Origin: a virus
Direction: 5' to 3' (one strand)
DNA length: 64,000 bases
IMG/VR virus record: IMGVR_UViG_3300009523_000001
Coordinates: 1 to 64,000 of that record
Part shown: positions 15,046 through 58,600 of the stretch, piece by piece
How positions within the stretch are numbered: position 1 is the first letter of the stretch
Layout: each line of letters opens with the position of its first letter
The notes under the pieces: generated by a model
What the model was told of the DNA's origin: nothing
The model's database searches: none
The model's input: the letters and a program-made list of their open reading frames with translations, nothing else
Made by a program: the position numbers and the translations under genes

Positions 15046-15047
15046 TC

Positions 15048-15998
15048 ATGGCGGATCGTGTCCCAGCCGTCACCGTCACCGGTGCGGGTGGTTCGCCGGG
15101 AACGGCGGACGGGGACGGGGCCAACGGGTGGATACGCATCGAGTGGGAGGAGCTAGTCATGCAGGGGAATACGGTTATTGAGTTGAGCTTGAAGCAGATT
15201 GCCAGCCGCGCCTGGCGTGATCGGACGTTAGCAAACGTCTACAAGACGGCGAGGAGACTGACTGGCAAGCAGGCGACCGTTCTGCTGAAGGTGCAGGCCA
15301 TTGTGGACATGGTCCGCAAAAACGCCAGGGGTGTCGATCCGACGGTTCAGGAGTCTTTTCTGCATGTGGACTCGATTCTTCGAGCCGGTCCGGTTGACGC
15401 TGATGACGCGGTGCTAGCCGCAGCGACGCTGTGTCTGTCCGTGGGAATCCGGTGCCGGATCGTTGGCGCACGGCGCGGACAGAGCTGGACTTGCTGGCTC
15501 GAATATCAGGATGGCTATCAGTGGGTCACCGTTGATGTGCTTGGCGGTGTACCTGTCGGTGCAGACGAGCAGCTCGTCGTCGAGTGTCAAGGAGGAGAGA
15601 TGGTCAAGGAGCGAGAGTACGCGGAGATCGAGCAGTACGACGTCGGACGCAGCACGTTCCACGCGTTCGGTCGTCACTGGCCGGTGAGTGATTTCATCGG
15701 CACGATCACAGACGTGGACGTCGGCAAGCGTGTCTACCGAGTGAGCGAGCACGCCGTCGGCGTGGAGAACGCCGAGCAGTTCAAGGCGCGGCGAGAGACG
15801 GAGGTACGGAGCCATACCCATGACAATGTCGCTTGGCTCGCAAACCTCATCTACAAGGCGCTGAATGCCCATCGGGCAGAGTTCGGTGCTCCAGACCTTG
15901 TGCGGCCACCGAATCCGAAGCAAGGCTACGCCATCGCGGTGCTCTTTGCGGACGGCAAGGACGTGGTCATTCGGTTCGAAGAGAGCGGAGGCAAGTGA
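15048..15998 (+). CDS. Mosaic protein with a degenerate transglutaminase-like domain
   Basis: DADDAVLAAATLCLSVGIRCRIV...WVTVD; in-frame internal RBS+ATG at 15159 and 15600. Confidence 0.5.
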   Translation: MADRVPAVTVTGAGGSPGTADGDGANGWIRIEWEELVMQGNTVIELSLKQIASRAWRDRTLANVYKTARRLTGKQATVLLKVQAIVDMVRKNARGVDPTVQESFLHVDSILRAGPVDADDAVLAAATLCLSVGIRCRIVGARRGQSWTCWLEYQDGYQWVTVDVLGGVPVGADEQLVVECQGGEMVKEREYAEIEQYDVGRSTFHAFGRHWPVSDFIGTITDVDVGKRVYRVSEHAVGVENAEQFKARRETEVRSHTHDNVAWLANLIYKALNAHRAEFGAPDLVRPPNPKQGYAIAVLFADGKDVVIRFEESGGK

Positions 15999-28894: not shown

Positions 28895-29221
28895 ATGCGA
28901 CTGTACGAACGGCGGACAGTCATCCAGTTCGCACGCCGCTACATCGATGCTGCGCAACCGTTATTTGCTTGGCTCAAGGAGATTGAGGATGCCCATTACG
29001 AGAATCCCGCGCAGCTCCGACAACGACACGGATCCGCAGACTTCGTGGGCGACAAAGTCATCTTCGACATCGGTGGCAATAAGTACAGGCTCGTGGTCAG
29101 CGTTCGCTACGCAAACCTAAAACGCCAGCCATCCCTCAACGGCATTGTCTTTATCCTCTTCCTCGGCACGCATGAACAATACGACAAAATCGATGTCGCA
29201 AAACTGACGAGGCCTCAATGA
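28895..29221 (+). CDS. higB: HigB-family toxin (RelE superfamily)
   Basis: SADFVGDKVIFDIGGNKYRLV...FLGTHEQYDKID. Confidence 0.9.
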   Translation: MRLYERRTVIQFARRYIDAAQPLFAWLKEIEDAHYENPAQLRQRHGSADFVGDKVIFDIGGNKYRLVVSVRYANLKRQPSLNGIVFILFLGTHEQYDKIDVAKLTRPQ

Positions 29222-29592
29222 GTGTCCGCCCCATCCGCACGCAAGCCGACTACGAGCGCGGCCTCCGTGAGATCAATCGTCTCTGGGACGCGCGTCCCGG
29301 TTCGGTGGAGGAGGACGAACTGGAAGCGATCGGCGCGCTCGTTGAGGCGTACGAGAAGCGTGTCTACCCCGTACCCGACCCCGATCCCATTGAGGCGATC
29401 AAGTTCAGGATGGAGCAAGGGGGTCTCACGAGTACCGATCTCTTGCCGATCTTCGGCACGCGCGGTCGCCTCTCGGAGGTGCTGAACCGCAGGCGCCCGT
29501 TGACGTTGGACATGATCCGACAGCTCCACTACCGTCTCGGGATCCCGCTGCAGTCCCTCGTGACCAGGCCGAGTCGGGCTGCATCCGTTTGA
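29218..29592 (+). CDS. higA: HigA-family antitoxin (HTH)
   Basis: PIRTQADY, LVEAYE, PDPIEAIKFRMEQ, SEVLNRRRPLTL.MIR.LH. Confidence 0.9.
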   Translation: MSVRPIRTQADYERGLREINRLWDARPGSVEEDELEAIGALVEAYEKRVYPVPDPDPIEAIKFRMEQGGLTSTDLLPIFGTRGRLSEVLNRRRPLTLDMIRQLHYRLGIPLQSLVTRPSRAASV

Positions 29593-30998: not shown

Positions 30999-32798
30999 TC
31001 ATTCTTCGTCCGCTTCCGGACTCCCACCCCCGCCGCGCGTCCGGATGCCGGCAGCGATCTGCCGGATCTTCCGGTACCCGTCCGCGCACTTGGCCATGTT
31101 GCGCGTGAGCGCCGCTGCGAAGCTCTCGTCGTGGTAACTCATGTTGTCGGCGATGTGCGTCGCCTCGTGGATCGCGGCAGCGTACAGCCACTTCAAGTCC
31201 GAGTCCTGCGCGGGCCGCAGGAGCTCCTGGCGCGTCCGGACGTCCTTGAAGGGGTTCAGCATGATCCAGGACTCGTCGCGCCCCTCCTTGTCCTCGTCGG
31301 TGATGGCTTGCGCGCCGTGGTCGGTCGAGAACACGAATCCGGCGCCGAAGTGCCGGTCGCTGCCGAGCTGCATCATCACGTACCGGCACAGCTCGACCCA
31401 TGTTTTGGCGAGCTTGAGCACGGTGGGCGTCATCGTCGCTGGGAAGAATTTGCGTGGGACCCGGTAGCCCTCGATCTCGTTGACCAGGAAGAAGTCCGGC
31501 TCCCAGACAAGCTGCTTGATGGCCGCTTCGAGGTGGTTGGGTCCCAGGAACTTCTGGTCGAGCAAGATGGTGGAGACGGTCGGCGATGGCATCGACTGCA
31601 GCCGATCCTCCTCGCCCTGCGCGTAGCTGCCCATCGAGGCGATGATGATCTCGGTGCTCCGGGTCGGCAGCTCCCCGGCGCCGTAGGGGCCGATCTGGTC
31701 GAGCGCCCTTGATGCCCGTTCCTTCGCGCGAAACTTCCCGGTCCCCTCGAACTTCTGCCGGATGAGGCCCTGCTTGTTCTTGAGCGCGGAGAGGTTGTCC
31801 TTCGCGATCCGTTCGGCCAGCTTGTCGACGGCGTCGCGCACGTGGTAGTCGCGGAACCCGTCGCGGTTCGCGGTCAATAGCTCGATGGACGGCGCGGTCA
31901 GCTCGGCGACGAGGAAGCCGGGGATGGTGCCGATGTACGACGAGAACATGAAGAGACCGCGGGCGCGCACGTAGAGGTACGACTGCGTCTCGCCGGTCGA
32001 CGGGGTGAAGTAGATGTCGGCCTTGTCCGGCACGCTGTCGACCATTCGGCCGCCGGTGAGGTCGGCTTTGGCCGGTGCGCCGTTGACCGTGAACCGGATG
32101 CCGGGCAAGTTGCACTTCTGGAGGAACCCGAGCGCAACGGGCGCGTCGGTCAGCTTGTCCGGCGGCATCACGACTTCGAGCCGGGTTCCTGTTCGCGCGG
32201 GCCCGCGCACGACCGTGTAGTCGATTCCGGCCCCCTCCACGACCGTGTCGCGGCTGTGGACCTTCCAGGAGATCCACGGCAGGAGCAGCAGCTCCTTGGC
32301 CTTGCCGAACCCACCCGCGGCGCCGCTCGGTCCGGTCTTGGTGGTGGCGCCGAGCACGAGGAACTTCGTGAGGATGGTCTCCTCGTCCATCCCCTTGCCG
32401 TCGTCCTCGCAGGAGACGAGCATTGTGCCGTCGTCCTGCTTGATGGCGCCGAGCGCCACATTCTTTCCGCCGGCGTCGACCGCGTTCTGGACGGCTTCCC
32501 GCCACCACTTGAGCGGCCAATCGTTGTAGTCCTTGAGCGCGGTGATGAAGAACTCGGGACCGATGGTGATGATCCGACGCTCGGACTGCTCGTGCAGCAC
32601 GCGCCGCTCAGGCTCGGTCGTCACCTCGACGGTGACCGTGCGCCCGTGGTCGTCGTAGACCTCGCCGCGGAAGAGGGCGTAGCCACCCTCCACGATCGCC
32701 ATCATCGGGAAGTACGCCTCGCTGCCCGAGTGAACGACGTAGAGTCCCGGCAGCGCGTCCAGCGCGTCCTGAGCGGTCTCGAGGAGGGTGGCCTTCAT
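30999..32798 (-). CDS. GHKL (MORC/Hsp90-like) ATPase fused to C-terminal zincin-like metallopeptidase
   Basis: REAVQNAVDA, EDDGKGM, GGFGKA, GTRLEV; AAIHEATH...HDESF. Confidence 0.8.
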   Translation of the reverse strand: MKATLLETAQDALDALPGLYVVHSGSEAYFPMMAIVEGGYALFRGEVYDDHGRTVTVEVTTEPERRVLHEQSERRIITIGPEFFITALKDYNDWPLKWWREAVQNAVDAGGKNVALGAIKQDDGTMLVSCEDDGKGMDEETILTKFLVLGATTKTGPSGAAGGFGKAKELLLLPWISWKVHSRDTVVEGAGIDYTVVRGPARTGTRLEVVMPPDKLTDAPVALGFLQKCNLPGIRFTVNGAPAKADLTGGRMVDSVPDKADIYFTPSTGETQSYLYVRARGLFMFSSYIGTIPGFLVAELTAPSIELLTANRDGFRDYHVRDAVDKLAERIAKDNLSALKNKQGLIRQKFEGTGKFRAKERASRALDQIGPYGAGELPTRSTEIIIASMGSYAQGEEDRLQSMPSPTVSTILLDQKFLGPNHLEAAIKQLVWEPDFFLVNEIEGYRVPRKFFPATMTPTVLKLAKTWVELCRYVMMQLGSDRHFGAGFVFSTDHGAQAITDEDKEGRDESWIMLNPFKDVRTRQELLRPAQDSDLKWLYAAAIHEATHIADNMSYHDESFAAALTRNMAKCADGYRKIRQIAAGIRTRGGGGSPEADEE

Positions 32799-33736
32799 CG
32801 CGGCCGATGCCGTGGACGCGACACCCGCGCCCGCGACTGCGCCACCCTGTAGTAGCTGGGGGAAGCCTCGCTCATCCTGGACGCGAATCGGACGTACCCG
32901 CGCGCGCGGTCGGCCTCCCTTTTCGCCTCGCTGTAGTCGGTGAAGGGTCCGGCGACGGTGCGGCCCTTGGGGTCAACCGCAATGTAGTCGCGGACGACGG
33001 GGCGGCGGTGTTCGGCGACGGCTTCCACCGGCGCGATCCGGTACCCCTCGTACTGGAGAGCGTGGTCGACGCTGAAGCTGTGGTTTCTGTGCATCCAGGC
33101 CCAGATCGCGTTCTCGGTGCCCCGCAAGACTTCCTTGCCGTCGCGGGTGAGCACGTACTGGCCGATGGGTGACCGCGGGTAGGCTCCGCTCGGTGACTTG
33201 CGCGCGTGGTGGCGTCTCGCTTCGTGCGCGAGTTCGCTCTTCGGCGTGCCGCGCACCTCGTCGAGGTTCTCCAGGATCAGGTCGGCCAGTCCCTGCCGGA
33301 CGTTCGGACTCTTCAGCTCCTCGTCGAAGGCGCCGAAGAAGGCGTCGCTGACCTCTTCGTAGGTGATGCCGTAGTGGTCGCGGACCCAGTCGGCGCTCCC
33401 GCTGCCGAACACGCCCTTCGCCCCGCTGAGCTCGAGAACGGTGCTCGCATCCATGTCGCGCTTCGTGTCCCACTCGAGCTGCTGGAGCATGTTCCGGGCG
33501 ACCTTGCGCGCGTCGGCGGGCGACTCGAGTGGGATGACGCTGTTGGGGTCGCGCTGGCGCATCCGCTCGGCCTCGACCATCTGCTCCCACACCCAGTCGC
33601 GGAAATAGTCGCCGTTCAACTGCTCCTGGGCGTAGTCGGTGCCGGCCTTGGAGGCGTCGACCAGAATCTGTTCACCCTCTTGCTTGGGGGTGGGCTCGCG
33701 GGCGGCGCGGCGCTTGGCTTTCGGTTTGCGGGTCAT
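32795..33736 (-). CDS. Mosaic multidomain protein with xxE-RR linkers
   Basis: RRAAREP, AHEARRHH, VAEHRRP, MSEAS; basic termini. Confidence 0.75.
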   Translation of the reverse strand: MTRKPKAKRRAAREPTPKQEGEQILVDASKAGTDYAQEQLNGDYFRDWVWEQMVEAERMRQRDPNSVIPLESPADARKVARNMLQQLEWDTKRDMDASTVLELSGAKGVFGSGSADWVRDHYGITYEEVSDAFFGAFDEELKSPNVRQGLADLILENLDEVRGTPKSELAHEARRHHARKSPSGAYPRSPIGQYVLTRDGKEVLRGTENAIWAWMHRNHSFSVDHALQYEGYRIAPVEAVAEHRRPVVRDYIAVDPKGRTVAGPFTDYSEAKREADRARGYVRFASRMSEASPSYYRVAQSRARVSRPRHRPR

Positions 33737-35394
33737 CGGCGGCTCCGTATGCGTTCGCGGGTTGTGTGCGTGAAGTTCGGTGGGACCGTCTTGACGATCG
33801 CCGCCAGGTACTCGGAGAGGTGCCGCGCGACCACCTCGGGCGATCCGGTTCGTGCGCGAAATGGAACGGTTCGGCGAAAGACGTTGTTGCTCTGGTCGAC
33901 CTTGACCTTCGCAACGGGAACGGTCGGGTCGTACGCGAAGCCTCGGATGTGGAACGACGCGCGGTTGTTCTCGGCCTCGGCGCCCCCGCCTGCGTCCCCC
34001 ACGCCGGGCGGCAGGTTGATGAAGTTCACGTAGACGCTGCCGCCGCCCCGCTCGCCGGCGAGGCTCGGATCGAAGCGAACGCGTGCCTGCCGATCGAAGC
34101 GCTGCAGCTTCGACGAAAGAAGCTCGATGAAGGCGTCGGCGGACATGGGTTCGAGGCCGATGTGGCGGGCCTCGGCCACTGCAGGCAGTTTCCTCATGCC
34201 TGGCAGCTTCCTGACGAAGTGCTTGCTTCCACGCGAATGTTCGTACTCGTTGGGTCGAGGCGCACGACCCGATTGGTCGATCTCGATCGAACGCAGATCG
34301 AATGCAGCGCCGCCCAGTTCGTCCTCGAGACGACGCTTTGCTTGTCGCTCAGAGGTGGCCCAGATCCACCCGTCGATGGTGCCGTGCGTGGTTGTGAACG
34401 AGACTCGGTAGGGTTGCTCTCGCCGCGCCTCATCCACCTCGCCGCTCTCATCCTCCTGCCAGCTCGCCGCGTACCCGTCCACTGTTTCCCAGACCCACTG
34501 GATGTCCTTGACCATCTCCGGGAGATCGGAGGTGGTCGGGTAGGTGAAGTGTCCGATGTTCTCGTAGCGGGCGGTCTCCGACAGCCCCTCGTCCCCAAAG
34601 AAGTCGACGGCGACCGAGGCATCGTCGAAGAGGGAGACGACGACAACGACCTTCTGGCTGTACTCGGGACTGTGCGTCGTGAACTGCGCCGCCTCGTTGT
34701 GCTCGCTCCAGCGGAAGCCGCCGGGGATGTCCTTCGGCGTCGAGCCGTTCAATTGCTGCGACAGTTCGTTGGCCAGTTGCAGCGATCCGCCGATGCCCGG
34801 CCCTTCCGGCTCGCGGCGGCCGCGTGGGCGCGCCTCACCGACCGTGCGGCCGCTGCGAGCAGCGTCCTTCGCATCGGCCGCGGTGGGGTACCGACCAAGC
34901 TTCCTCGTCTGCACACCGGTCGTCGGGTTGACCGCCCACAGGATCCAGTCGCCGCCTGCAGACGGGTCGACGAGGAAGTGGCTGACCCCGTCGACCGTAC
35001 CGACGAAACTATCGCGGTGGTGATGCCACTCGAGATCACTCGCGGCTCCAGGTATCTTTGGCGGTGCGCGGCGCCGGCCCGCCTCGCTCGCTCGCCCTCC
35101 GACCCGCCGCGTGTGCGACCCGATCGGCTCGGCGCCGGCGGGCAGCCGGGTCACGACGGCGCGGTCGCCTGTGGCTGGAAAGTGCCAATACCCTCGTTCT
35201 TGCCACGGGCTCGCCGACTCGTACCGCCCGTCGGTGCGCGGGAAGAAGAGCGTCATCTGCCGGCCGGCGACGAGGATGTGGCTGGCGCCGTCGACCGTCT
35301 TGGCGTGCTCGATCAATTCGGGGAGCGTGGTGAAGTCGGCGACGCGGTGGTGGGGGGAGCGCAGGGGGCGGCGAGAGGGGCGGCGTCGTGTCAT
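33733..35394 (-). CDS. Mosaic protein (about 5 domains) with xxE-(A)RR linkers
   Basis: ASEAGRRR, VGEARPRGRR, VDEARRE, VAEARH separating unrelated segments. Confidence 0.8.
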   Translation of the reverse strand: MTRRRPSRRPLRSPHHRVADFTTLPELIEHAKTVDGASHILVAGRQMTLFFPRTDGRYESASPWQERGYWHFPATGDRAVVTRLPAGAEPIGSHTRRVGGRASEAGRRRAPPKIPGAASDLEWHHHRDSFVGTVDGVSHFLVDPSAGGDWILWAVNPTTGVQTRKLGRYPTAADAKDAARSGRTVGEARPRGRREPEGPGIGGSLQLANELSQQLNGSTPKDIPGGFRWSEHNEAAQFTTHSPEYSQKVVVVVSLFDDASVAVDFFGDEGLSETARYENIGHFTYPTTSDLPEMVKDIQWVWETVDGYAASWQEDESGEVDEARREQPYRVSFTTTHGTIDGWIWATSERQAKRRLEDELGGAAFDLRSIEIDQSGRAPRPNEYEHSRGSKHFVRKLPGMRKLPAVAEARHIGLEPMSADAFIELLSSKLQRFDRQARVRFDPSLAGERGGGSVYVNFINLPPGVGDAGGGAEAENNRASFHIRGFAYDPTVPVAKVKVDQSNNVFRRTVPFRARTGSPEVVARHLSEYLAAIVKTVPPNFTHTTRERIRSRR

Positions 35395-35900
35395 ACCCAG
35401 CTCCGCACGATCTCGTACGTGACCTTGATGACCCTGCCCTTGTCCTTGACCGAGAGCAGGTCGACGTTGCCGCGCTCGTTCACGTAGAAGACGTTGGGGA
35501 AGTAGTTCGAGTCGTGCATCGCCTGCACGCCGACCTTGAGCGCCTTGTCGAAGTCGTCGAAGGTGCCGAGACTCTTCCCGCTGAAGGTTACCGAATAGCC
35601 GCCTCGCCGCGCACCGATGGTCAGTCCATCATCTATTTCCGACTGGTCGAGCTCCTCGTCCTCTTGTTCCTCGTCATCTTCTTCAGGCTCTTCGTCCTCG
35701 TCGTTTTCTCGTACGGTGCGTCGGCCGCCGGGCTCCCCGTAGACCGCCGACGAGAATCGCTCGACATCGAAGGAAGGATTGTCCTCTCGGAACAGGCGCG
35801 CGAACTCCTCGGCGAGCCGCTGCCGCTCGCGCGGATCGCGGACTCCGTTCAGGATGCGCGCGATCTCGATGTAGTGCCGCTTGGTGAAGGCCGCCATCAA
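35391..35900 (-). CDS. Two-domain mosaic protein
   Basis: TKRHY..IA...DNPSFDVERF domain, RRTVRE linker, acidic domain with YFPNVFYVNERGN. Confidence 0.8.
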   Translation of the reverse strand: MMAAFTKRHYIEIARILNGVRDPRERQRLAEEFARLFREDNPSFDVERFSSAVYGEPGGRRTVRENDEDEEPEEDDEEQEDEELDQSEIDDGLTIGARRGGYSVTFSGKSLGTFDDFDKALKVGVQAMHDSNYFPNVFYVNERGNVDLLSVKDKGRVIKVTYEIVRSWV

Positions 35901-36985
35901 CGTCTCCTTTTCTGTCCTGGACGAAGCGCTCCGTGGAACCCACGAGGCATCGGCAACGGCACCCGCTGTCCCCTCGCCCCGGCCTGCGCCATGCTGTCGA
36001 GCGTTCGCTGCGCGACGGCGGCGTCGTGACCGGACCAGTACACGCTCGCCCGGGTGCCGTCCGGCTTCGTCACAACGTAGGAGTGGCCGACGAGCTCGAC
36101 CTTCGAGCCGCGCGGGATGTCACGCCAGTTGATGTTGGTGGTCGGGAGGTCGGCTTCGCCGGCGTAGCGGGGTCGAGGGGGTGAACGTACCTCGCCGGCG
36201 CGCGGAGAGGCACTTCCTGCTGGATAGTCGTGCTCGAGGTAATAGCGGAGACCCGCTACGATGGTACGGAGGTCGCGCGCGTCTTTTTTCGTCCAGCCGT
36301 GCTCCCCGCGTTCGGCCTTCGGGATATAGCTCTCGGCTTGCGCGATGGCACCCTCGACCCACTTGGGATCGGGGTACACGTGGCCGCCGTAGTAGTAGCT
36401 GCCGACCGGGCCGATGCCGCCATCGCCGTCCCCGCCCCAGGGGGACATCATCTCTCCGAGACGCTTGCGATCAATAAACCGCGCCTTGATGGATGCAGAC
36501 CGTGCTTCCAGTCTCGAGCGGATCATCGGCCGGCGAGCCTCGCTGACAGCGGGAGCCGGCTTGCGGTGGCTGCGGTACCAGTCGGGCGGGGGACCGTGGA
36601 TGAAAACCTCCCCGTCGGCGTCGGGGTCGCCGAGGTACAGGTCGAACTCGCCGTACGACTGCGCGGCCTCCTGGAGGGGATCTTGGAACTCCTCGTCGAT
36701 CGTGTCTTCGTCGAAGAAGCCGCTTCCTGCGCCACCGCGACTCAGCCAGAAGTCGTGTCCGGCTCGCGCATCATCGATCCCGCTCTCGGAGAGCAGCTCG
36801 GCGTATCGCTCCTGGAAGTCGGCGCAGTCCTCGATCATCAGCTCCATCGTCTCGGGCGCGATGTCGTCGATGCCGTAGTTCGCGTCGAGCGGTTCACCGC
36901 CCTGCTCGTCGCTGTTGTCTGTCGTGCTCCAGAGTGCGGCTTCGATGTACGCGCGGGTGAAGCTGTCGAGTCGTTGCGGGGGCAT
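35897..36985 (-). CDS. Mosaic protein, N-terminal AGHDFWL-type acidic phage domain
   Basis: AYIEAALW...AGHDFWLSRGGAGSGFFD; linkers VSEARRP, AGEVR, AGEAD. Confidence 0.8.
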   Translation of the reverse strand: MPPQRLDSFTRAYIEAALWSTTDNSDEQGGEPLDANYGIDDIAPETMELMIEDCADFQERYAELLSESGIDDARAGHDFWLSRGGAGSGFFDEDTIDEEFQDPLQEAAQSYGEFDLYLGDPDADGEVFIHGPPPDWYRSHRKPAPAVSEARRPMIRSRLEARSASIKARFIDRKRLGEMMSPWGGDGDGGIGPVGSYYYGGHVYPDPKWVEGAIAQAESYIPKAERGEHGWTKKDARDLRTIVAGLRYYLEHDYPAGSASPRAGEVRSPPRPRYAGEADLPTTNINWRDIPRGSKVELVGHSYVVTKPDGTRASVYWSGHDAAVAQRTLDSMAQAGARGQRVPLPMPRGFHGALRPGQKRRR

Positions 36986-37437
36986 CAGCGTCTCCTCGGT
37001 GGCGGTCGGCGCGCGGATCGTCCGCGCGGTATCGGTCGTCTGGGCGGTTCCTCGCGCACGGTCGGCCGCCTGGGTGGTGGGACGTGCGGCGCTGACCGCA
37101 CGGGGGGCCGCCGGGAAGGGGCTTCCCGCGCCATTGGGTTCCGTCGTCGCGCCTCCTCGACCTCCTCCTCCTCGTCGCCGATGAGCCCCTGGATAAGGTC
37201 TTCGACGTCGCGAGTGTCCTGGATGGCGTTCAGGGTGTCCCCTAACAGTTCGGCTTCTTTCCAGCCGAGGTTGAACGTCTCGTAGCCCATGTCTGCCGCT
37301 TGGTCGCCGCCAGGTAGGCTCGCCAGGATGCGCCAGAACAGAGTCGGGAAGTCCTCCGGACCGTGATCGTAATTGGGAAGCCAGGACTGCAGCTCGCCGA
37401 TGAGGTCGGCGATGGGTTTGCGCGGTTTGCTCGGCAT
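36985..37437 (-). CDS. Acidic domain with Arg/Pro-rich tail
   Basis: VEEARRRNPMAREAPSRR...VREEPPRR. Confidence 0.7.
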   Translation of the reverse strand: MPSKPRKPIADLIGELQSWLPNYDHGPEDFPTLFWRILASLPGGDQAADMGYETFNLGWKEAELLGDTLNAIQDTRDVEDLIQGLIGDEEEEVEEARRRNPMAREAPSRRPPVRSAPHVPPPRRPTVREEPPRRPIPRGRSARRPPPRRR

Positions 37438-38501
37438 TATCTTCTCCTCGTGCGCGTTCGACGTCGCGCTTCCTCGGTCCTGGATTCCTCTTTGCGTTTC
37501 GCCCAGACGTACGTCATGCCCGACGAGCTGCCCGGGATCTCTTCTTGCCATCCGTCGACGGACTTGGCGGCTTCCTCTACCTGCTCGCGCGACCGGTCGA
37601 GCTCCTTGGCGACGGCGTCTACGACGTGCTCGGCGTACGCGTAGCCCTCGGTCGACGGCACGCGGCCGCCCGACTTGTCGAGGTACTCGTAGCCGTTCTT
37701 GTCGAGCCAGTCGGTGAGCTCGTCGGTGCCAACTTCGCTCCAGAGGTCGTTGTGCTTGTACCCGAACACCTCCGCCCAGTGTGGGCCGACGATCAGGTCT
37801 CCGTTGACCGCCACCGCGTCGCCGAAATTCGCCTCGACGACGATCGACTCGGGATCGAACCCTGCGTCCTCCAGGTCACCCGCGAGCTGGTCGCCGGGCG
37901 TGCCCCAGCCCTCCGCCGCACTCTGGTCGACCATTCGCTCGATCGTTTCCTCGAGCGCCACCTTGATCTCGCCGTAGCCGAGCACGTCGTCGCGGAACGC
38001 CTCGTCCTCGTCCGCGAGGTACTCCGACCCCGAGATTTTGCCGCCCCACCACTTCACCTTCTCGGGGATGTTGATGTCACCAGACCATCCAGAGGGCCCA
38101 GGGTCACCGCGTCCGTAGTCGAGCAGTGCCTCCGCGATAGCGATGGCTCGATGCTCTGGTTCCATCTCTTCGAGCGCGTCTCTGGCTAGACCGACGGCCT
38201 GCATGGCGCTCTGGACTTCCTCGCTGCTCGGGTCGAGGTCGCTGAGATCGAAGTACCCCTCCTTCGTCCAGAATGGGAAACCCACATCGGCGGCTTCCCT
38301 GTCGCCGACGTTGTTGCGGACTGGGTCGATCCGAATTAGCTCAATGGCGTTCCCGTCGCCGGTGGCGATCGTACCGCCTGACGCTCCAGGGTCCATGTCC
38401 CCACCGATCTGCTCCCAGTCCATCGTCGGGATGATGATCTCGAGCGGTTCGTCGCCCGGCTCGATGCCGGGGAGGTGTTGCTGCCTTCGTCGGGAAGCCA
38501 T
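37437..38501 (-). CDS. Acidic hypothetical protein with basic termini
   Basis: MASRRR start; ends TEEARRRTRTRRR. Confidence 0.75.
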   Translation of the reverse strand: MASRRRQQHLPGIEPGDEPLEIIIPTMDWEQIGGDMDPGASGGTIATGDGNAIELIRIDPVRNNVGDREAADVGFPFWTKEGYFDLSDLDPSSEEVQSAMQAVGLARDALEEMEPEHRAIAIAEALLDYGRGDPGPSGWSGDINIPEKVKWWGGKISGSEYLADEDEAFRDDVLGYGEIKVALEETIERMVDQSAAEGWGTPGDQLAGDLEDAGFDPESIVVEANFGDAVAVNGDLIVGPHWAEVFGYKHNDLWSEVGTDELTDWLDKNGYEYLDKSGGRVPSTEGYAYAEHVVDAVAKELDRSREQVEEAAKSVDGWQEEIPGSSSGMTYVWAKRKEESRTEEARRRTRTRRR

Positions 38502-38920
38502 CAGTCCGACCCTCCCATGTCTTCCACCCCGAAGGCTTCCGCGATCTCCTCGGTGGTCGGCACCGAGACGCGTGCCACGCCGACGTTGACGTGAGCGGCC
38601 CAGAGCCGCTTGCGACCGGTCTTCCACGCCTCCACCTCGCGGTCGGTGGGCGGCACGTTGTCGTCGTCGACCATGAACTCGCAGGTGAGTCGGCCGTCGA
38701 ACGCGGCCCAGTTGTCTCGTTCCTGGGGGAGTCCGTAGGTGCTGGAGAGTTTCTTGATGAGCGCGGCCGGGCTAGTCGCCTTGACGAAGATACTCTCGGA
38801 CAGGACGGTCTGCGAGTTGTCCTGCTCACCGTGTTCGTAGCTGTCCTCGACCGATTCCCACTCGATGTAGGTCGCCGCCCAGTTATTGTCGGTCTCTCGC
38901 ATCCGTCTTCGAGTAGCCAT
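38501..38920 (-). CDS. Hypothetical protein
   Basis: Starts MATRRRMRE. Confidence 0.7.
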   Translation of the reverse strand: MATRRRMRETDNNWAATYIEWESVEDSYEHGEQDNSQTVLSESIFVKATSPAALIKKLSSTYGLPQERDNWAAFDGRLTCEFMVDDDNVPPTDREVEAWKTGRKRLWAAHVNVGVARVSVPTTEEIAEAFGVEDMGGSD

Positions 38921-39624
38921 TAGTTCACCCTCCAGTAAACCAGCCCGCCATCGGTCGTGTACGACTGGCCGTCGTACGACGACAGGAAGTGCGACGCTCC
39001 GTCGGTGTCGACGGCCTCTTCGGCGGCGGCGTCGATGTCGATGCCGGCGATCCGGATGGCCTCTTTGACGGCGTTCTCCTTGCCGTAAATGTTCTCGAGA
39101 TACTCCATCGGGTCTTGGAGTTCGCTCTCGGTCAGCCGCTCGGCCAGTTCTTCGATCTGAGAATCGTCGGGCGATTCGAGCTCTCCGTCCTCGTTCTCCT
39201 CTGGCATGTCGAGCCCCTGCGCTTCCCACTCGCGCCAGAAGTCGCGGTCGCGCTCGTCGCGCAACCTCTCTTCGTTGCTGTCTCGCGTGTCGCCCCATAG
39301 ATCGCGCTTCAATCGGTCCGTGTCGATGTGCGACTCGATGAAGTCCTTGTTGAAGATTTCCGGCTGATCGTCGAGATCTTGCTTGACGATCTCGAGCGCA
39401 AGCTCCCGCTCATCGTCTTCGCTGGCGACGACCTTCCATTCCTTGCCGTGCTTGCCGCCGCGGATGGTGATCTCGTACGCCTGGACGCTGAAGCCGGATC
39501 GATCGTCTTGGATCTTCAGCTCGTCCGGGTCGATGTCGAGTTCCTTCGCCATCTCGGCGAGTACGGCGTCCTCGTCGCCGAAGTCGACCGTGTCGGATTC
39601 GTGGATAAATCGGCGGACCATCAC
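38920..39624 (-). CDS. Highly acidic protein (possible DNA mimic / antirestriction)
   Basis: Very D/E-rich; C-terminal IDIDAAAEEAVDTDG.SHFLSSYDG; starts MMVRRFIHE. Confidence 0.7.
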   Translation of the reverse strand: MMVRRFIHESDTVDFGDEDAVLAEMAKELDIDPDELKIQDDRSGFSVQAYEITIRGGKHGKEWKVVASEDDERELALEIVKQDLDDQPEIFNKDFIESHIDTDRLKRDLWGDTRDSNEERLRDERDRDFWREWEAQGLDMPEENEDGELESPDDSQIEELAERLTESELQDPMEYLENIYGKENAVKEAIRIAGIDIDAAAEEAVDTDGASHFLSSYDGQSYTTDGGLVYWRVN

Positions 39625-39989
39625 TCATCTCCTTCGAGGTCGGCAAACTCCTCTTCGATTTCAGCCCACGCTTCTTCGGCTTCGGCTAGGTCGTCGTACC
39701 ACTCGACCTCGACAATACCGTCCGATCGCTCGAAGAGGATGACCGCCAGACTCTCGTCGAGGAGTTCTTCCTCCTCCTTGGTGAGCCGGTCTTTGGCCTC
39801 GGCCGCATCCTCGAGAATGCGCTCGACCGTGTCTCGATCGAGCGCCATGAAGCCGTACCAGCCGCCCCCCTCGGGGTAGCTCTCTTCGTGGTCGGCGCCG
39901 AAGTCGATCGTCGCACCATGCACGTAGCTGTCGATGATCGTGCTGTACTTGCCGGGGCCGTACGATCGGATTCCTTCCGCTTTCGCCAT
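39621..39989 (-). CDS. Acidic hypothetical phage protein
   Basis: GPGKY...GWYG...SDGIVEVEWYD..AEAEEAW. Confidence 0.7.
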   Translation of the reverse strand: MAKAEGIRSYGPGKYSTIIDSYVHGATIDFGADHEESYPEGGGWYGFMALDRDTVERILEDAAEAKDRLTKEEEELLDESLAVILFERSDGIVEVEWYDDLAEAEEAWAEIEEEFADLEGDE

Positions 39990-39990
39990 C

Positions 39991-40395
39991 TCACGCCTCC
40001 CACTTGATCCACTTGGGATCGAATTTCGTCGGGAGCTGCGCGGTCGACACCCCGATCGAGATTAGGATTTTGCGCAGGTCGTTGTATTCTTCGGCCGCGA
40101 CCTCCTCGATGTACACCTTGCCGTCGCTTTCTACGCCCCAGAGACCGCCGCTCGTGAGCGTCTGGAGGACACCCTGGATGTCGACGTCGGTCTCCGCGCG
40201 CACACCGACGAATGAGAAGTCGCCGCGCTCGTACTGTTTCCGGCGGTCCTCGTCTTGGTCCTTGTACTCGGGGTCACCGCTGTCGAAGAACGATGTGTCC
40301 GGGTCCTCGTCGTGCATCACGCGCACACGAATCTCCTGCACCGTCGGTGCGGACTTCTTGCGCGTGGCTTCGACGACTCGCTTGCGCGACGTCAT
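39991..40395 (-). CDS. Hypothetical phage protein, first gene of the mosaic operon
   Basis: TAAGGAGG RBS; MTSRKRVVEATRKK; FVGVRAE...GLWGVESD. Confidence 0.75.
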   Translation of the reverse strand: MTSRKRVVEATRKKSAPTVQEIRVRVMHDEDPDTSFFDSGDPEYKDQDEDRRKQYERGDFSFVGVRAETDVDIQGVLQTLTSGGLWGVESDGKVYIEEVAAEEYNDLRKILISIGVSTAQLPTKFDPKWIKWEA

Positions 40396-43523: not shown

Positions 43524-43703
43524 ATGCGAACACTCATTTGCCGCCGCTGCCACCGGCTCCGCCTTGTCAATGCGACACGCACGTGCGCGGCGTGCGAGAA
43601 GGATCTTCGAGCGCAGGAGCGGCCGCGCGCGGCGGCGGCGCCAGCGCAAGTCGATGGCCCTGCGCCGCCCGGCACCGGGGTCGAGGACGCGACGCACGAC
43701 TAG
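43524..43703 (+). CDS. Small zinc-ribbon protein
   Basis: CRRC...CAAC. Confidence 0.45.
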   Translation: MRTLICRRCHRLRLVNATRTCAACEKDLRAQERPRAAAAPAQVDGPAPPGTGVEDATHD

Positions 43704-44260
43704 CGCGTCGCCGCGTCTTCGAAGAAATAAGCTGTCAGGTCCACGTCCACCCAGCGAAACCCGTGGTCGGTCATGTCCTTCTCCATTTGGGACCGAGACC
43801 ACCCGAACATCTTTCTGCCCTCGAGCGCGCTGACGAGGCCCGTCCGATCGCGGCCGTGCGAGCAGTGGAAAGCGACCACGTAGCCTTGCGTCCATGCGTA
43901 GTGGATGACTTGCACTGCGCCCATGACCTGCTCTACGGACGGTTTGATCAGGACGGACCACGGTTTGTCGTCCTCGGGCGGCATCGGGAATTTGAGAACC
44001 TTCCAGCCGAGCGTGGTGGCAGGATCGTCGGATCCCTCCTCGTCGTCGTTGAGCTTGACGATGACGACCCGCTCGCCGCTCGGGGCGATGCGCGCCGCGA
44101 GCTCCTTCCATGCCGCCTCGTTCGGTGGTTGGCCCATCCGCCACATGCGTGGGGCGAAGGAGACGAGGTTCGGGGTGCCTGCCGGCGTCACGGTCTCGTG
44201 AAACCCGAATCCACATCCGAAGAGGGCCAGGACGGACAGCACGAACCGGGGCAGCTTCAT
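43700..44260 (-). CDS. Tyrosine/dual-specificity phosphatase with lipoprotein signal
   Basis: HCSHGRDRTG (CX5R); N-terminal MKLPRFVLSVLALFGC. Confidence 0.85.
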   Translation of the reverse strand: MKLPRFVLSVLALFGCGFGFHETVTPAGTPNLVSFAPRMWRMGQPPNEAAWKELAARIAPSGERVVIVKLNDDEEGSDDPATTLGWKVLKFPMPPEDDKPWSVLIKPSVEQVMGAVQVIHYAWTQGYVVAFHCSHGRDRTGLVSALEGRKMFGWSRSQMEKDMTDHGFRWVDVDLTAYFFEDAATR

Positions 44261-44312
44261 GGGGTGCACTCCGCGAGGGCGGCCAGCAGCCAGGCCAGCA
44301 ACCGGAGGGGGT

Positions 44313-44720
44313 TCACGGCCTGCCCTCGACCATCGCACGGAAGTAAGGGTTCGTCAGGCCATCGCGGAGTTCTCGGATGCGGCGGACGGCGCGGTCCCGC
44401 GGCACCCCGAGCTCGACGAGCGCCAGGCCCGCAATGACCCCGGAACGGTTGCGGCCCTGCCAGCAAGTAACGATCACGCGATGTCCGATCCGCACATGGT
44501 CCGCCACCGTTCGCGCGGCGCTCCGGATGCGCAGGCGAGTCACCTTGTCCGGCGGGGGCCCATCGTCGAGCGGCACGTGCAGCACGCGGTAGCCGGGCAG
44601 ATCCGGCTGGTATTCCTCGGCCGCGAGCACGACGACGTCGAAGGGGATGCGTGCGCGAGGAGGCGGGGCGCTCCCCTGCGCGAGCCGGCCGCCGGAGAGG
44701 AGGTAGTGGTAGCCGCTCAT
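44313..44720 (-). CDS. Dual-specificity phosphatase (cytoplasmic)
   Basis: PLDD; VTCWQGRNRSG (CX5R). Confidence 0.85.
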   Translation of the reverse strand: MSGYHYLLSGGRLAQGSAPPPRARIPFDVVVLAAEEYQPDLPGYRVLHVPLDDGPPPDKVTRLRIRSAARTVADHVRIGHRVIVTCWQGRNRSGVIAGLALVELGVPRDRAVRRIRELRDGLTNPYFRAMVEGRP

Positions 44721-44740: not shown

Positions 44741-46072
44741 TCAAGAATCGGCGTAGAAGACGCAGTTGTTCGGCGCCTCGAAGAGCAGCACCCAGTCGTT
44801 GTCACCAGCGGCGTTGGTGCCTGGAGTGGCGGCGAACGTGTGGCTGCCCGACGTCCCGAGTGTTCCGTTGACGGCCGATTGCACGCTACCGCTTGTGGGG
44901 TCCATCCAAAAGGCGCCGACGCGACGAGTGAACCCGGATAGGGCAACGGTCAACGATTCATTGGTGGGCACGTAGATGGCGCCCCATGAGCCGTCGGAGG
45001 CTTGCGCAGCGCTCGCGAAAGCGGCCCCGCTGTAGCTGCCGCCGTTGGTCAAGAAGGTGAATCCTGTATCGGGCACGAGGAGCCACCAGGCACGCGAAGC
45101 CATGAGGTTGTTGACGACGTTGCTGCCAAGGGCGCCTGTTGTTCCGAGCAACGTCGGCCAGCTCGTGAGAAACTCCCAGAGCGGCTTTGGGGCCACGGAA
45201 CCGCCGCTACCAAAGGTGTATCCCATTCCTCCGTTGAGTAGCGACTCCCAATTTTCCTGACGAATAAGCTGTTCGGTGCCGGAGTTATCGAACTCGTAGC
45301 AGCTTTCGATCATGAACGACGGTCGTGATTGACCGGTATACGACGACTGCATGTTCGTGTGGATCCACGGATGCCCATTTTGGACATCTGTGTACACACT
45401 GTCTACCGTGAGCCAGGATTGGCCACCCCACTCTGTGCTCGCGTTGGTACCGTCTGCGCAGTGGGCCGTCATCAGATGAGTCGAATCGGCCGCGACGATC
45501 GCGGTCGCTATGGCGATCGTCGAGCTCGTGTCGGCTGGATTATAATCACCGCCCATAACGTAAATAATGTTTGGAAAGCTCGTGTATCTTGACCCGAAGA
45601 AGTTGCCATAGGCTGTTCGTTTAGCACCGCTGTTCGCCTGGAGATCAGTGTACCAGCCTTGGTTACCCCCGTTGAACCCGAGGTATGCTGGGAATAGAAG
45701 TACCATCATTCCGTAGGTCGCGCATGTGTTGATTGCCAAGTCCCACTGATCGAAATAGGCTGTATTCCATGTGGAGAAATCGGCCAATTGGGATCGATTG
45801 GTGTACGTGCTCCCGTCGGTGGCTTTCAAAAACGGCTGATCTCCGTTGAGGTTGGCCGCCGTACTCCCGTCCGGTCCAACGGGCGCCATATACAGCAACG
45901 TGGTGTTGAACCCCCGAGCGATCCGATCCTGCACGTACTGTGTGATGCCGGAGCTATTTAGTGAAATGCCGATGTTCCAACCGGAGTCTCCACGCATCTG
46001 AAACGGTACTCCGAATTGATCGACAAGATACCGTTTTCCAGTAGGGATGACGAGTGGAAATCTGCTTGCCAT
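44741..46072 (-). CDS. GH140/apiosidase-like (DUF4038) glycoside hydrolase with C-terminal collagen-binding-like domain; probable virion receptor-binding enzyme
   Basis: RYLVD..G.PF...GD..W, RGFN, PNIIY.MGGD, IES.YE, W.DP..G, DWVLL; lower GC than flanks. Confidence 0.75.
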   Translation of the reverse strand: MASRFPLVIPTGKRYLVDQFGVPFQMRGDSGWNIGISLNSSGITQYVQDRIARGFNTTLLYMAPVGPDGSTAANLNGDQPFLKATDGSTYTNRSQLADFSTWNTAYFDQWDLAINTCATYGMMVLLFPAYLGFNGGNQGWYTDLQANSGAKRTAYGNFFGSRYTSFPNIIYVMGGDYNPADTSSTIAIATAIVAADSTHLMTAHCADGTNASTEWGGQSWLTVDSVYTDVQNGHPWIHTNMQSSYTGQSRPSFMIESCYEFDNSGTEQLIRQENWESLLNGGMGYTFGSGGSVAPKPLWEFLTSWPTLLGTTGALGSNVVNNLMASRAWWLLVPDTGFTFLTNGGSYSGAAFASAAQASDGSWGAIYVPTNESLTVALSGFTRRVGAFWMDPTSGSVQSAVNGTLGTSGSHTFAATPGTNAAGDNDWVLLFEAPNNCVFYADS

Positions 46073-47137: not shown

Positions 47138-49308
<2,171 letters not shown>

Positions 49309-55657: not shown

Positions 55658-58600
55658 TCAAGTCTGGGTCGAGATGAGGCGATCGACGGCGGCTGAATCG
55701 AAGAACGCCAGGTGCGCCGAGGCGTCGTTCACCCCGAAGCTGACCACCAACCGATCGCCGTCGCGAGCCAACCCGGCGGCGAATTCGATGCCCTTGCGCT
55801 CGAAGTAAAACGGCTCGGAGATGCTCCGGATCTCGAGCTTCTCGGTCAGCCGGACGAACCGGTGAAGGTAGATCCGTCCAGGGGTGTGGACGACCTCGTG
55901 CACGAGGCAGAGGAAACTGTCTCCGTGCGGGATGACCTGCGATCCGCCGCGCAGCTCAGTCAGATTTTCGTCAAGATCGGTGATGCGGAACCGCTCGGTG
56001 GTTTTCTCCGGCGCGCAGTCGATCACGATCGTTGGGTCGCACAGGTAGAGGAAACTGCCGGGTTGCCCGAGGATCGGCATCCAGTTCTTCTGCGCGCGGT
56101 CGTGCTCGTAGTCGCGAATGACGCGGACGTCCGTGATCTTCCACTCGTGGTCGATCGTGAGAATGCACTGTTCGCATCGTCCATCGCCTAGATCGCGGAC
56201 GACGGCCGACGCGCGAAACTTGTCGCCGTCGAGCCAGAGCCGGCAGTCCTCGAACCCTTCGACCGGGTAGCTCGTACGCGGGAGGCCTGTCGCGTCGGTC
56301 AGGAGTGTGGGCGATCCGGTCGGCTTCCACGTCTTGTTCATCTCGAGGATCCAGTTTTTGGTGCGGATGATGCCGCTGCCGTCGATCGTGGGGTACTGCC
56401 CCTCGGCGACCGTGTAGTTCACGGTGCGGACCAGCACGAGCCGCCGGTCGCCCACGACGAGCACCGACGGGTTCATCGGCGCGTACCCATCGTCCGATTT
56501 CCAGTCGATCGCGCGCAGCTCGGCGCCGCAGAGCTCGCGCGCGGTCTTGACGTAGTGAACGAAATTCCCTCGGGCCTCGCCGCGCACGTTGGCGTCCCGG
56601 TCGATGGTCAGTCGGGCGCACGCGTCGTAGCCGGCCTGCCGGCGCGCGGGGAGCTTGCTGTAGAACCCGCTGATGGCGACATCGGGCGCGTTTTTGCGTT
56701 CGTAGACATCCTTCTCGACGAAGAGGATTTCGTCCGGGCAGGGCATCCGTGCGACCTGTTCGGCGAGGAGGATCGCCGCATCGCTCTTGCCGTGCTCGCG
56801 CCACCACCGCGCGAGCAGCGCCAGCGGTTCCGCGCGGGTGGGTCGGAAGTTGTAGGCGTCGAAGCAGGCGAGGACGAGCGCCGGCTCGTCGTTCAACGCG
56901 GCATGGCTGCGCGCGATGCCGTAGTGCGATGCCCAGACTTCTTCGTCCCACCCGCCGGCGGCAATCCGGCGCGTGTACCACTGGATGGCCTCCTGCTGCC
57001 GTCCCATCTCGCGGTAGGTGTTCGCGAGGTAGAACATATAACGGGCGTTGTCCGGCTCCCGGGTGAGGCCGTCCATGAGCAGGCGGATGTCCCGATCGCC
57101 CTTGTCGCCCTTCGACCCGCCGTCGTTGCGGTCGTCGATGGAGCACGAGTCGAGGTTCGGCGGGGTGTCGCCGGGAACAGAGAGAAACTCGTGAGTGACG
57201 CCGACGTACTGCGCGACCACGTCGCGCCGAACGAGCCGCGTATTCCAGTAGTGAAGGGCTCCGGTCAACTGCTGGAGCCGGTACGCGGGCGCGGTGAGCG
57301 CCCGCTTGTCCAGCGACCCCCGGAGCACCATGTCGGCGTCGATAAGCAGGGCGTAGTCCCATCCGTCGTACGCTCGTGCTGCCTCGAGCGACTCGTTTCT
57401 GGCCTGGGCGAAGTTCTTGAACGTGGTGCGGACCAATTTGCCGGGGACTTGGTGCTCTTTGAAAAACCGCTGGATCGTCTCGAATGTCCCGTCGGTCGAT
57501 CCGGTGTCGGTGATGACCCACTTGTCGATGAAGGGCAGCGCGGCCGAGAGGCACCGCTCGATGATGGCGCTCTCGTTCTTGACGATCATCACGAGGCAGA
57601 TCCGGGTGACCGTCGATTTCTCCTCCTTGTGCTTGCCGCGGGCGGCGGTGGCACGGCGTTCAAGCCGATTCATGGGGGTGTCTCCGTCACGTGGAATATC
57701 GATGATGCTGTCGTCGTGGTCGGCCTGGTACCAGTCGAACCGCTGGCCCTCTCGTTCCATCTCAGCCCAGGTGTTGACCTCCCAGGTGATCTGCTGCATC
57801 CGCCGGAAAACGGCGTGGTAGCGCTCGACGAGCTCGGGGATCGATTCGCGGTCGACGAGCAGAAAGCCACCGCAGAATCGCCAGTTCACGTCGTCGTCGG
57901 TCGCGCGCGCTGCGGCGGTCTCCTTATTCCAGCAGCCCGGTGCAAGTACGCATACAGACGGGGGATGGAGCGCACGCAGTCGGTCGAGGAAGCTCGCCGG
58001 ATTCTTGACGACCTTCATCACCGCGAAGTCGATCCAGGCGAAATGCGAAGAGGAGTCGTCGAGCTCGCGGGCGAGCGCAAGGAGATCGAGCTTGGCGTTG
58101 ATGAGCAAGAGGGAACCGCGCGCGTCCTTTTCTGACGAGCGGGTGCCCGGAAGCGTTCGGGTGCCGTCGTCGTGCTGGAACGGCCACAACGATTCGAGGT
58201 CGGTCAGTTCCACTTGAACGTTCGGGTGCTTGGGCGCTCGCTCGGCGAGCTGCCGGTCGAGAAAGAGGAGGATCGGCAGGCCGCTCGCGGCGAGCTCGGA
58301 GAACCATCGAAAATACGCGTCTTCGTCCACGGTTCGATCCCGCAGCCGGAAGAACGCTGAGACAAAACGGGTGCTGGAGATCGGACGTTTCAGCAGGGTG
58401 AGCACATCATCCATCCGGGTCGGTCTTTCGGGACGTTTCTTCTGAGACGATCCGCGCTCTCTGGCGAGTGCGTGGAGCCGCTCGTTCCACTCAACGCCCT
58501 CGCGGGTCACCATCTCCGCGAGCTCCGGCAGCCGACTCGAGCTGACCTTTTCCGCGTGCCATGCGACGACGTCGCGCAACGTGACCGATTGGAAGCCCGC

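Follow-up and report, generated by a model that had tools for sequence, protein, structure and literature searches.

A mosaic operon of shuffled small domains with a recurrent Glu-Ala-Arg-Arg junction motif in an uncultivated virus record from peat

We analysed a window of 64,000 nucleotides (nt), comprising positions 1-64,000 of the IMG/VR virus record IMGVR_UViG_3300009523_000001, an uncultivated record from peat whose whole 117,665 base pairs (bp) are referred to here as G000, and we focus on an operon at 30999-40395 whose products consist of small, mostly acidic domains joined or ended by short basic stretches. G000 is a single contig labelled 'linear', and it was compared with five related IMG/VR records of 109-125 kb that were fetched whole (G001-G005; direct terminal repeats in 2/5) and with related metagenome loci (L012, L015, L024, L026); CheckV estimates all six records to be 100% complete. 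Eleven minus-strand open reading frames (ORFs), with the strong bias in third-position GC content that is typical of real genes, fill the locus. Their successive stop and start codons overlap or almost touch (spacings of +1, -4, -4, -7, -1, -1, -4, -4, -4, -4 nt), and we therefore treat them as one translationally coupled operon, as an earlier reading made from the letters of this DNA alone (the sequence-only reading) had proposed. The operon encodes 3,132 amino acids (aa) in total. The products are acidic for the most part, as that reading had also stated (isoelectric point (pI) 4.1-5.2 for p1-p5, p7, and p8, the products being numbered by gene); p9 and p10 have a pI of 9.2, and these two are net basic because of their linkers and tails only.

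Comparison with curated families returned few matches. No Pfam family was matched by p1-p10 at E<=0.01 except for one sub-threshold match to DUF2226, a scan against NCBIfam gave nothing beyond the Pfam result, and the 15 operon proteins of G001-G004 likewise matched no Pfam family; gene 1 had no Pfam or PHROG match, and gene 2 no family of either collection above cut-off. The sequence-only reading had put several domains forward as stand-alone phage genes, which was found for part of the operon: the first 120 residues of gene 7 match phrog_1915 (E=3e-19, PHROGs), relatives of this N-terminal domain occur in 42 phage records, and in Caulobacter phage CcrBL9 the homologue forms a gene of its own within the terminal repeat. 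Profile matches also cover parts of p8 (its N-terminal module, the first 95 residues, against positions 682-774 of the 1237-position profile phrog_2922) and of p10 (Table 1). The expectation failed in tblastn searches, where p3, p8, p9, and p10 had no match in cultured phages and gene 8 had none in phages or plasmids. A promoter and terminator scan gave site counts that were not above those of shuffled sequence.

The operon is conserved yet hypervariable, with its small, mostly acidic domains shuffled, duplicated, fused, and split between relatives. It is present in 5/5 of the related records with the gene order kept and the module content differing, and a scan of metagenome contigs with gene 11 recovered 25 loci in which the upstream genes are the same operon with modules lost, duplicated, or exchanged. 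Gene 1 has homologues in all of G001-G005 and gene 3 has homologues (52-69%) in L012, G001-G003, and G005; the C-terminal half of gene 5 is exchanged for other modules in relatives, the middle module of gene 10 is replaced in L015, L026, and G001, and p7 and p10 are mosaic between related loci. Gene 9 was searched most widely (HMMER, 1.84 billion cluster representatives; 405 proteins at E<=0.001), and its matches form five blocks, each of which was seen by itself, in different orders, and as a separate protein of 80-130 aa; among 150 representatives, the module architectures were E, A, AC, C, B, D, ACE, ABC, and others. A metagenome-assembled genome with a gene-11 relative had no p9 match, and neither did 201 genomes of its class. 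Contigs from two peat runs (X5, X7) and two lake runs (X9, X10) cover the operon in short variant pieces with 85-100% likeness, which suggests many co-existing strains and explains why most of the related metagenome loci are short. Module polymorphism within the contigs of these four DNA runs was considered and dropped, as the joints had short sides of 20-45 letters and were too weak to claim.

A short motif recurs throughout these proteins. The sequence-only reading had listed 20 motif strings and four domain strings, all of which we found when reading the translations by eye, and had described the shared element loosely as a small or hydrophobic residue, any residue, and Glu. In that loose form it is not enriched (151 vs. 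139.6 ± 8.2 in shuffles, with 51/500 shuffles reaching 151); the strict form is. Glu-Ala-Arg occurs 8 times in the operon (vs. 2.2 ± 1.5, 1000 shuffles), Glu-Ala-Arg-Arg 5 times (vs. 0.2 ± 0.4), and hydrophobic-x-Glu-[Ala/Ser] 28 times (vs. 12.6 ± 3.5, 0/500 shuffles reaching 28), while five other orders of Glu, Ala, and Arg occur 1-4 times each. Nor is Glu-Ala-Arg a general property of this GC-rich genome: outside the operon, 124 crude ORFs of the contig (26,072 aa) contain it 10 times, against 14.2 ± 3.9 expected, and contain Glu-Ala-Arg-Arg twice, in agreement with the earlier expectation that the motif would be more frequent in the operon than elsewhere. The related operons gave the same picture (32 ORFs, of which 27 were left once contained or >=90% identical ORFs had been dropped), with 27 copies of Glu-Ala-Arg (vs. 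6.5 ± 2.5, 0/500 shuffles) and 12 of Glu-Ala-Arg-Arg (vs. 0.6 ± 0.7), and so did the 150 representatives of the gene 9 search, clustered at 50% identity, with 131 copies of Glu-Ala-Arg (vs. 39.4 ± 6.6). Other residue orders are at or below expectation in both the operon and the 150-representative data sets, and the shuffles, together with the five other orders in the operon, rule out a pure composition effect. Among 35 unique motif contexts, the residue two positions before the Glu (P3, where the Glu is P1) is Val or Ala in 18, and Pro often follows two or three residues later.

The motif signal lies at the level of amino acids and not of DNA. Codon usage at 26 motif sites resembles background (GAG 65% vs. 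67%, with all four Ala codons and five Arg codons in use), and since the synonymous codons vary as they do elsewhere, the conservation is in the protein, where the residues are under selection. In several genes, the final two or three Arg codons overlap the ribosome-binding site of the next gene; internal motif sites use ordinary CGN Arg codons, and are therefore not relics of ribosome-binding sites. A DNA-level signal such as a recombination site or repeat was rejected on these grounds.

Of the internal homology break-points of p9, 139/208 fall within 10 aa of a motif Glu (vs. 16.4% expected), and the excess of hydrophobic-x-Glu-[Ala/Ser]-Arg in the 150 representatives lies wholly outside the module cores (95 vs. 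13.9 ± 3.6 outside; 2 vs. 3.2 ± 1.7 inside). One and the same junction motif joins different partner domains in L012, L015, L024, L026, and G001-G003, and the motif is kept as a C-terminal tail at protein ends with no following domain. Two further claims of the sequence-only reading, that the motif marks apparent domain boundaries and that these are mosaic multi-module proteins with basic stretches flanking the junctions, thus hold. The basic N-terminal leaders that it had noted are not significantly more frequent in the operon: such leaders occur in 10/34 operon genes vs. 158/716 other ORFs (p=0.30, with gene starts called crudely). Basic C-terminal tails are commoner in operon genes of the six genomes (12/34 vs. 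126/716 elsewhere, Fisher p=0.02), and the stretches that follow the motif are hydrophilic, at hydropathy percentiles 4-39 in 7/8 cases (the 15 aa after the junction motif of gene 6 lie at the 4th percentile).

These two sets of observations bear on the view that the motif has no function and is an ancestral linker cassette that spread with the modules by recombination at domain borders, so that its enrichment would reflect common descent. Many sites are indeed orthologous between relatives, the motif fades with distance (5-6 junction copies in the operon of G003, about 1 in G005, and 0-1 in G004), and, as a weaker point, the region's peat-run assemblies are fragmented into variant contigs. 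Such a cassette would have to be reconciled with residues that stay constant while their synonymous codons vary freely, with a motif that joins unrelated module pairs and is found in 76/150 representatives, and with the rarity of other orders of the same residues, and we consider it improbable.

A related unit was found outside the window, in a syntenic block of G000 that is shared with most of 29 IMG/VR loci (Table 1). The block comprises a RadC-like JAB gene, three genes of unknown function (one product is Pro/Gln-rich and 617 aa long), a transglutaminase-like gene, the gene for a very basic protein of 1,128 aa, and genes for proteins of 438, 198, and 328 aa. The basic protein has a conserved N-terminal domain followed by a protamine-like region, in which [Val/Ala]-x-[Glu/Gln]-[Ala/Ser]-Arg-Arg-(Arg)-Pro occurs 8 times; the unit is also present in 4/6 related genomes, among which the protein ranges from 457 to about 1,200 aa. 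The basic-protein gene contains 5.6 copies of a 48-nt tandem repeat (68% matches) that encodes 16-residue Arg-rich units. We asked whether motif load co-varies between operon and basic protein across six genomes; the relationship was not clean, with G001 as a counter-example.

IMG/VR contigs (up to 125 kb) encode 29 relatives of the 438-aa protein, and atlas feature matches to jelly-roll coat clusters scored 0.83-0.87, suggesting that the protein is possibly a jelly-roll capsid protein. We keep this as a lead only: the AlphaFold2 model has a mean pLDDT of 50.5, Foldseek gave no match at E<=0.001, and the best VIA Z (6.3) was to generic beta-sandwiches and below the stated noise level. Phage_capsid (PF05065), Phage_portal (PF04860), Terminase_6N (PF03237), and TerL_ATPase (PF03354) had 0 matches at E<=1 in G000, no HK97 capsid, portal, or terminase was matched among the 90 ORFs scanned with Pfam and the 76 scanned with PHROG, and the PHROG scan found no structural match except a transglycosylase domain. 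Among the genes that G000 does carry are phage-like ones for replication and recombination, toxin-antitoxin pairs, an integrase gene, a restriction-modification pair, and genes for collagen-like repeat proteins and a large glycosyltransferase.

We reasoned that the junctions might be cleavable basic tags on a shuffling arsenal of effector domains. Domains tend to end in a hydrophobic or small residue, any residue, and Glu, followed by Ala-Arg-Arg and a basic, often Pro-rich stretch, and this unit would serve as the tag: the basic stretch would tie the protein to nucleic acid or to the particle interior, an endopeptidase encoded by the element would cut the Glu-Ala bond, and the single domains so freed would act early in infection, in host take-over or counter-defence. 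A cleavable tag would fit three observations at once, namely that unrelated modules end in one residue-specific unit, that this unit is retained as a C-terminal tail, and that it is present in a putative DNA-condensing protein; retention without a following domain in particular fits a tag better than a mere spacer. An effector role is suggested by the acidity of the domains, by a mosaicism like that of polyvalent proteins, and by the terminal-repeat location of the p7 N-terminal domain homologue in CcrBL9. This is the reading that we favour, tentatively.

Another possibility, which we regard as somewhat doubtful, is that nothing is cut: the motif would be the last turn of a domain's C-terminal helix followed by a flexible basic spacer within intact multi-domain (polyvalent) proteins, and the spacer would tether the acidic domains to nucleic acid or neutralise them. 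Glu, Ala, and Arg are strong helix formers, and the Pro a few residues later and the hydrophilic stretches after the motif would suit a helix end and a spacer. The motif is also missing from half or more of the module ends, and some polyvalent proteins are described as transferred or packaged uncut (PMC5512222). Such a linker does not by itself account for the lack of Glu-Ala-Arg enrichment in the other ORFs of the same GC-rich genome or for motifs that remain as terminal tails, and, as the modules also occur as separate genes, covalent linkage is not needed.

The excess of basic C-terminal tails raises a further alternative, that motif and basic tail are a targeting tag for a packaging or export machine and are never removed. 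Substrates of type IV secretion with Arg-rich C-terminal signals would be a parallel. The motif-bearing tails at many protein ends and the like unit in the putative core protein would agree with this alternative. Against it, the position of many tags is internal, some of the Arg codons at gene ends also serve as ribosome-binding site for the gene that follows, and no secretion, conjugation (type IV, coupling protein), or packaging ATPase was recognised in Pfam scans of G000, where the sole credible Walker-A ORF is a UvrD-like helicase (a transposase ORF has a chance match besides). We consider this alternative unlikely.

If the favoured reading of cleavable tags is correct, the element should encode the peptidase, and two candidates were weighed. 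Gene 11, the last and accessory gene of the operon, combines a GHKL-type ATPase (HATPase_c_3, 28.8 bits vs. a cut-off of 25, E=1.4e-6, Pfam; the Bergerat-fold ATP-binding motifs are invariant in 10 homologues and nearly invariant in 61) with a C-terminal domain that bears an invariant His-Glu-x-Thr-His and an extra His 8 residues on; His544, Glu545, His548, and His556 are invariant in 61 sequences, and would correspond to the His-Glu-x-x-His and third ligand of zincin metallopeptidases. The C-terminal domain had no Pfam match at E<=10 and no match to profiles of PDB structures, a language-model atlas places it beside viral proteins of 150-166 aa of unknown function, and it seems also to exist in such stand-alone form. 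At least 141 proteins share the two-domain architecture, on contigs of up to 273 kb. As gene 11 is missing from G001-G004, which keep the operon, it is unlikely to be a general processing enzyme.

The most plausible candidate is instead the transglutaminase-like Cys-His-Asp protein of the syntenic block, which may be a peptidase or a cross-linking enzyme, with gene 11 at most accessory. Its Cys113, His147, and Asp163 are invariant in 21 homologues, and its gene lies directly upstream of the basic-protein gene, an arrangement that is syntenic in 24/29 loci. Vasohibins reportedly cut after a Glu. Transglutaminase-like folds include true peptidases, the vasohibins (PMC4866520, PMC6937246). A second transglutaminase-core protein (Pfam E=7e-10) is encoded within the window at 15006-15998 and is weakly paralogous to the block's transglutaminase-like protein (BLASTP E=1e-4). 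The statement of the sequence-only reading that the window holds no prohead protease agrees with the absence of S77 and S78 matches at E<=1, and it is qualified by the His-Glu-x-x-His...His signature of gene 11 and by this paralogue.

In a broader scenario, G000 would represent a bacterial double-stranded DNA virus of an undescribed, apparently non-HK97 lineage with a polyprotein-like strategy. Dozens of shuffling effector domains would bear the protamine-like tags, delimited by Glu or Gln, that its genome-condensing core protein also has; co-condensed with the DNA, these domains would be freed by a cysteine peptidase of transglutaminase fold with cleavage after Glu or Gln. We hold this to be a long shot; if true, it would couple a core maturation like that of adenovirus to an injected, modular counter-defence arsenal. 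In adenovirus, the core-protein precursors pVII and pre-Mu are cut by a viral cysteine protease. The likeness to G000 would lie in an Arg-rich, DNA-condensing protein whose short sites are repeated and whose gene is close to those for a putative capsid protein and for a candidate cysteine peptidase of papain-like fold; the protease clan, the site, and the host's domain of life differ, and only the basic protein outside the window fits. RNA-virus polyproteins, which are cut by 3C-like proteases at Gln or Glu before a small residue, offer a similar parallel in their strings of domains, in Gln or Glu at P1, and in Ala, Ser, or Gly at P1', with Gln and Glu alternating in the basic protein. They differ in that the present element is DNA with prokaryotic gene coupling, and no chymotrypsin-like protease was found in it by Pfam.

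Several results weigh against cleavable tags, or against parts of that reading. A six-frame search of G000 found 0 matches at E<=1 to Peptidase_S77 (PF03420) or Peptidase_S78 (PF04586), profiles that divergent proteases such as the gp175 type could escape. The transglutaminase-like candidate itself stays below the family cut-off (Transglut_core, 21.4 bits vs. 23, E=3.3e-4), and gene 11 is absent from G001-G004, with only a fragment in G005. A junction motif is common at module ends and not universal: among distant relatives, Glu-[Ala/Ser/Thr]-[Arg/Lys] lies <=7 aa from internal module ends in 11/45 cases for module A, 14/30 for C, 2/6 for B, and 4/19 for E (background 5.9% of windows). No avoidance of the motif within module cores was detectable (11 vs. 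7.1 ± 2.8), the operon of G004 is essentially without the motif, and the gene 1 leader of G002 has Asp-Val in place of Glu-Ala. Within the basic protein, Glu or Gln precedes Ala-Arg-Arg-Pro at 30/56 sites only, 5-6 of the G000 motif copies belong to the one 48-nt tandem repeat and so are not independent, and G001 has the motif in its operon and none in its basic protein. G000, finally, is a virus-like element whose particle formation is presumed from the IMG/VR classification and the weak jelly-roll lead.

Among known systems, the nearest in site sequence are the prohead proteases of tailed phages. In T4, gp21 cleaves between Glu and Ala after L/I-x-Glu and so frees injected internal proteins of their targeting propeptides (PMC9026906), and SPN3US gp245 cleaves after Ala-x-Glu, with a preference for Val at P4 (PMC10052503). 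In the accounts drawn on here, these enzymes and phiKZ gp175 share with the operon a hydrophobic or small P3, Glu at P1, and a small P1', and the sites of gp21 and of the giant-phage proteases lie at N-terminal leaders and C-terminal tails, several per protein; their cargo includes injected host-modifying proteins, a likeness to the operon that would hold by analogy. The resemblance of the site (Glu, then a small residue, at module borders) is one of sequence only. Taken literally, the sequence-only reading amounts to a T4- or phiKZ-type tailed phage, where cargo inside the head is matured by a prohead protease of S77/S80-like type. The motif's resemblance to the L/I-x-Glu and Ala-x-Glu sites, cut at a Glu-Ala bond, speaks for that model; unlike those phages, G000 lacks S77 or S78 protease, HK97 capsid, portal, and terminase matches in a record that CheckV rates complete, its structural matches in PHROG amount to the transglycosylase domain, and the operon site precedes an Arg-rich stretch and separates whole domains, where the described phage sites remove a propeptide. 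We regard a T4- or phiKZ-type system as very improbable.

Polyvalent proteins (Iyer, Burroughs, Anand, de Souza, and Aravind, 2017; PMC5512222) are the nearest in architecture: many unrelated small domains per polypeptide, extreme mosaicism, a predicted delivery with DNA and role in conflict with the host, and, for some of these proteins, proposed processing by a zincin-like peptidase. As in their description, which counts 2-15 unrelated, reshuffled domains per polypeptide, p9 has five modules and p7 and p10 are mosaic. Unlike polyvalent proteins, the operon proteins (p1-p10 and the 15 from G001-G004) matched none of the hallmark Pfam domains (zincin MPTase, ArdC-N, MuF, helicases, methylases, ARTs, LPD), their modules are spread over about ten coupled genes and not gathered in one giant protein, and no portal, terminase, or MuF head module or conjugation apparatus was found in G000; the parts of the published description used here define no junction motif. 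A literature search, with supplements outside its scope, found no description of such a system, and Glu-Ala-Arg-Arg combined with 'cleavage site' and 'phage' returned nothing.

Should the junction prove to be a processing or tagging site, it would provide a simple sequence handle with which to find and delimit hundreds of unknown viral effector domains, given that p9 alone matches 405 cluster representatives and that no operon module looked at belongs to a curated family, and it would be the first such rule for polyvalent-type proteins. The family of 109-125 kb records is of interest in itself, as standard capsid, portal, and terminase genes are not recognisable in it.

Table 1. Positions of the operon genes and of other features; window and G000 numbering coincide, and positions above 64,000 lie outside the window
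Feature	Position	Strand	Description
Gene 1	39991..40395	-	134 aa, acidic single module; basic N-terminal leader with Val-Val-Glu-Ala site (40363-40377)
Gene 2	39621..39989	-	122 aa, very acidic (pI 4.1)
Gene 3	38920..39624	-	234 aa, very acidic, net charge -42
Gene 4	38501..38923	-	140 aa, acidic; short basic leader
Gene 5	37437..38507	-	356 aa from chosen start (ORF open to 38627); acidic body ending with junction motif (37464-37478), then Arg-rich tail
Gene 6	36985..37437	-	150 aa (ORF open to 37551); single module, junction motif (37147-37161), then 55-aa Arg/Pro-rich tail
Gene 7	35897..36985	-	362 aa; N-terminal module phrog_1915 (aa 4-119), junction motif (36533-36547), more modules, Arg-rich end
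Gene 8	35391..35900	-	169 aa; acidic run connects two small modules
Gene 9	33733..35394	-	553 aa; five modules (about aa 15-103, 108-186, 200-321, 325-407, 411-545) with four junction motifs between them (35077-35091, 34828-34842, 34423-34437, 34165-34179)
Gene 10	32795..33736	-	313 aa; basic leader, module 1, junction motif (33215-33229), small module phrog_38200 (aa 193-239), variant junction (33005-33019), last module, basic tail
Gene 11	30999..32798	-	599 aa; GHKL-type ATPase (HATPase_c_3, aa about 100-157) and conserved C-terminal domain with His-Glu-x-Thr-His (31155-31169) and extra His (31131-31133); last gene, accessory
Syntenic block	77446-91347		in most of 29 IMG/VR loci; outside window
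Transglutaminase-like protein	83725-84405		in syntenic block
Basic protein	84856-88242		1,128 aa; in syntenic block
438-aa protein	88338-89654		in syntenic block
Second transglutaminase-core protein	15006-15998	+	in window
HigB-like toxin and HigA-like antitoxin	28895-29592	+	in window
Two small phosphatase-like ORFs	43700-44720	-	in window
Glycosyltransferase, methyltransferase, epimerase, and glycoside hydrolase	55658-60421, 62156-63687, 44741-46072	-	in window
Collagen-like repeat ORF	47138-49252	-	in window
Collagen-like repeat ORFs	about 64260-68654	-	outside window
Collagen-like repeat ORF	63848-64255
Accessory genes	97772-98706, 99818-100717, 103817-107219		outside window

Other features of the window and record are as follows (Table 1). 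Directly upstream of the operon region lies a HigB-like toxin gene (Pfam E=1.5e-22) with an overlapping HigA-like antitoxin gene, a pair that is not found in G001 or G002. Two adjacent small ORFs have weak matches to tyrosine or dual-specificity phosphatases, and one of them is 77% identical in G001. Three minus-strand stretches of the window encode, between them, a protein of 1,587 aa, in which three GT2 glycosyltransferase domains accompany TPR repeats, as well as a methyltransferase, an NAD-dependent epimerase, and an apiosidase-like glycoside hydrolase. The glycosyltransferase shares 59-76% identity with its counterparts in G001 and G002, and is therefore ascribed to the element and not to a host. 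Several long ORFs with collagen-like Gly-x-y repeats share a conserved N-terminal start and may encode fibre proteins; GC content there is very high in all frames, so that gene calls are ambiguous. Further along the record lies a cluster of accessory genes of mobile and defence type, made up of a nucleotidyltransferase/HepT pair, a tyrosine recombinase, a DDE transposase, and an N4/N6 DNA methylase with an ORF beside it.

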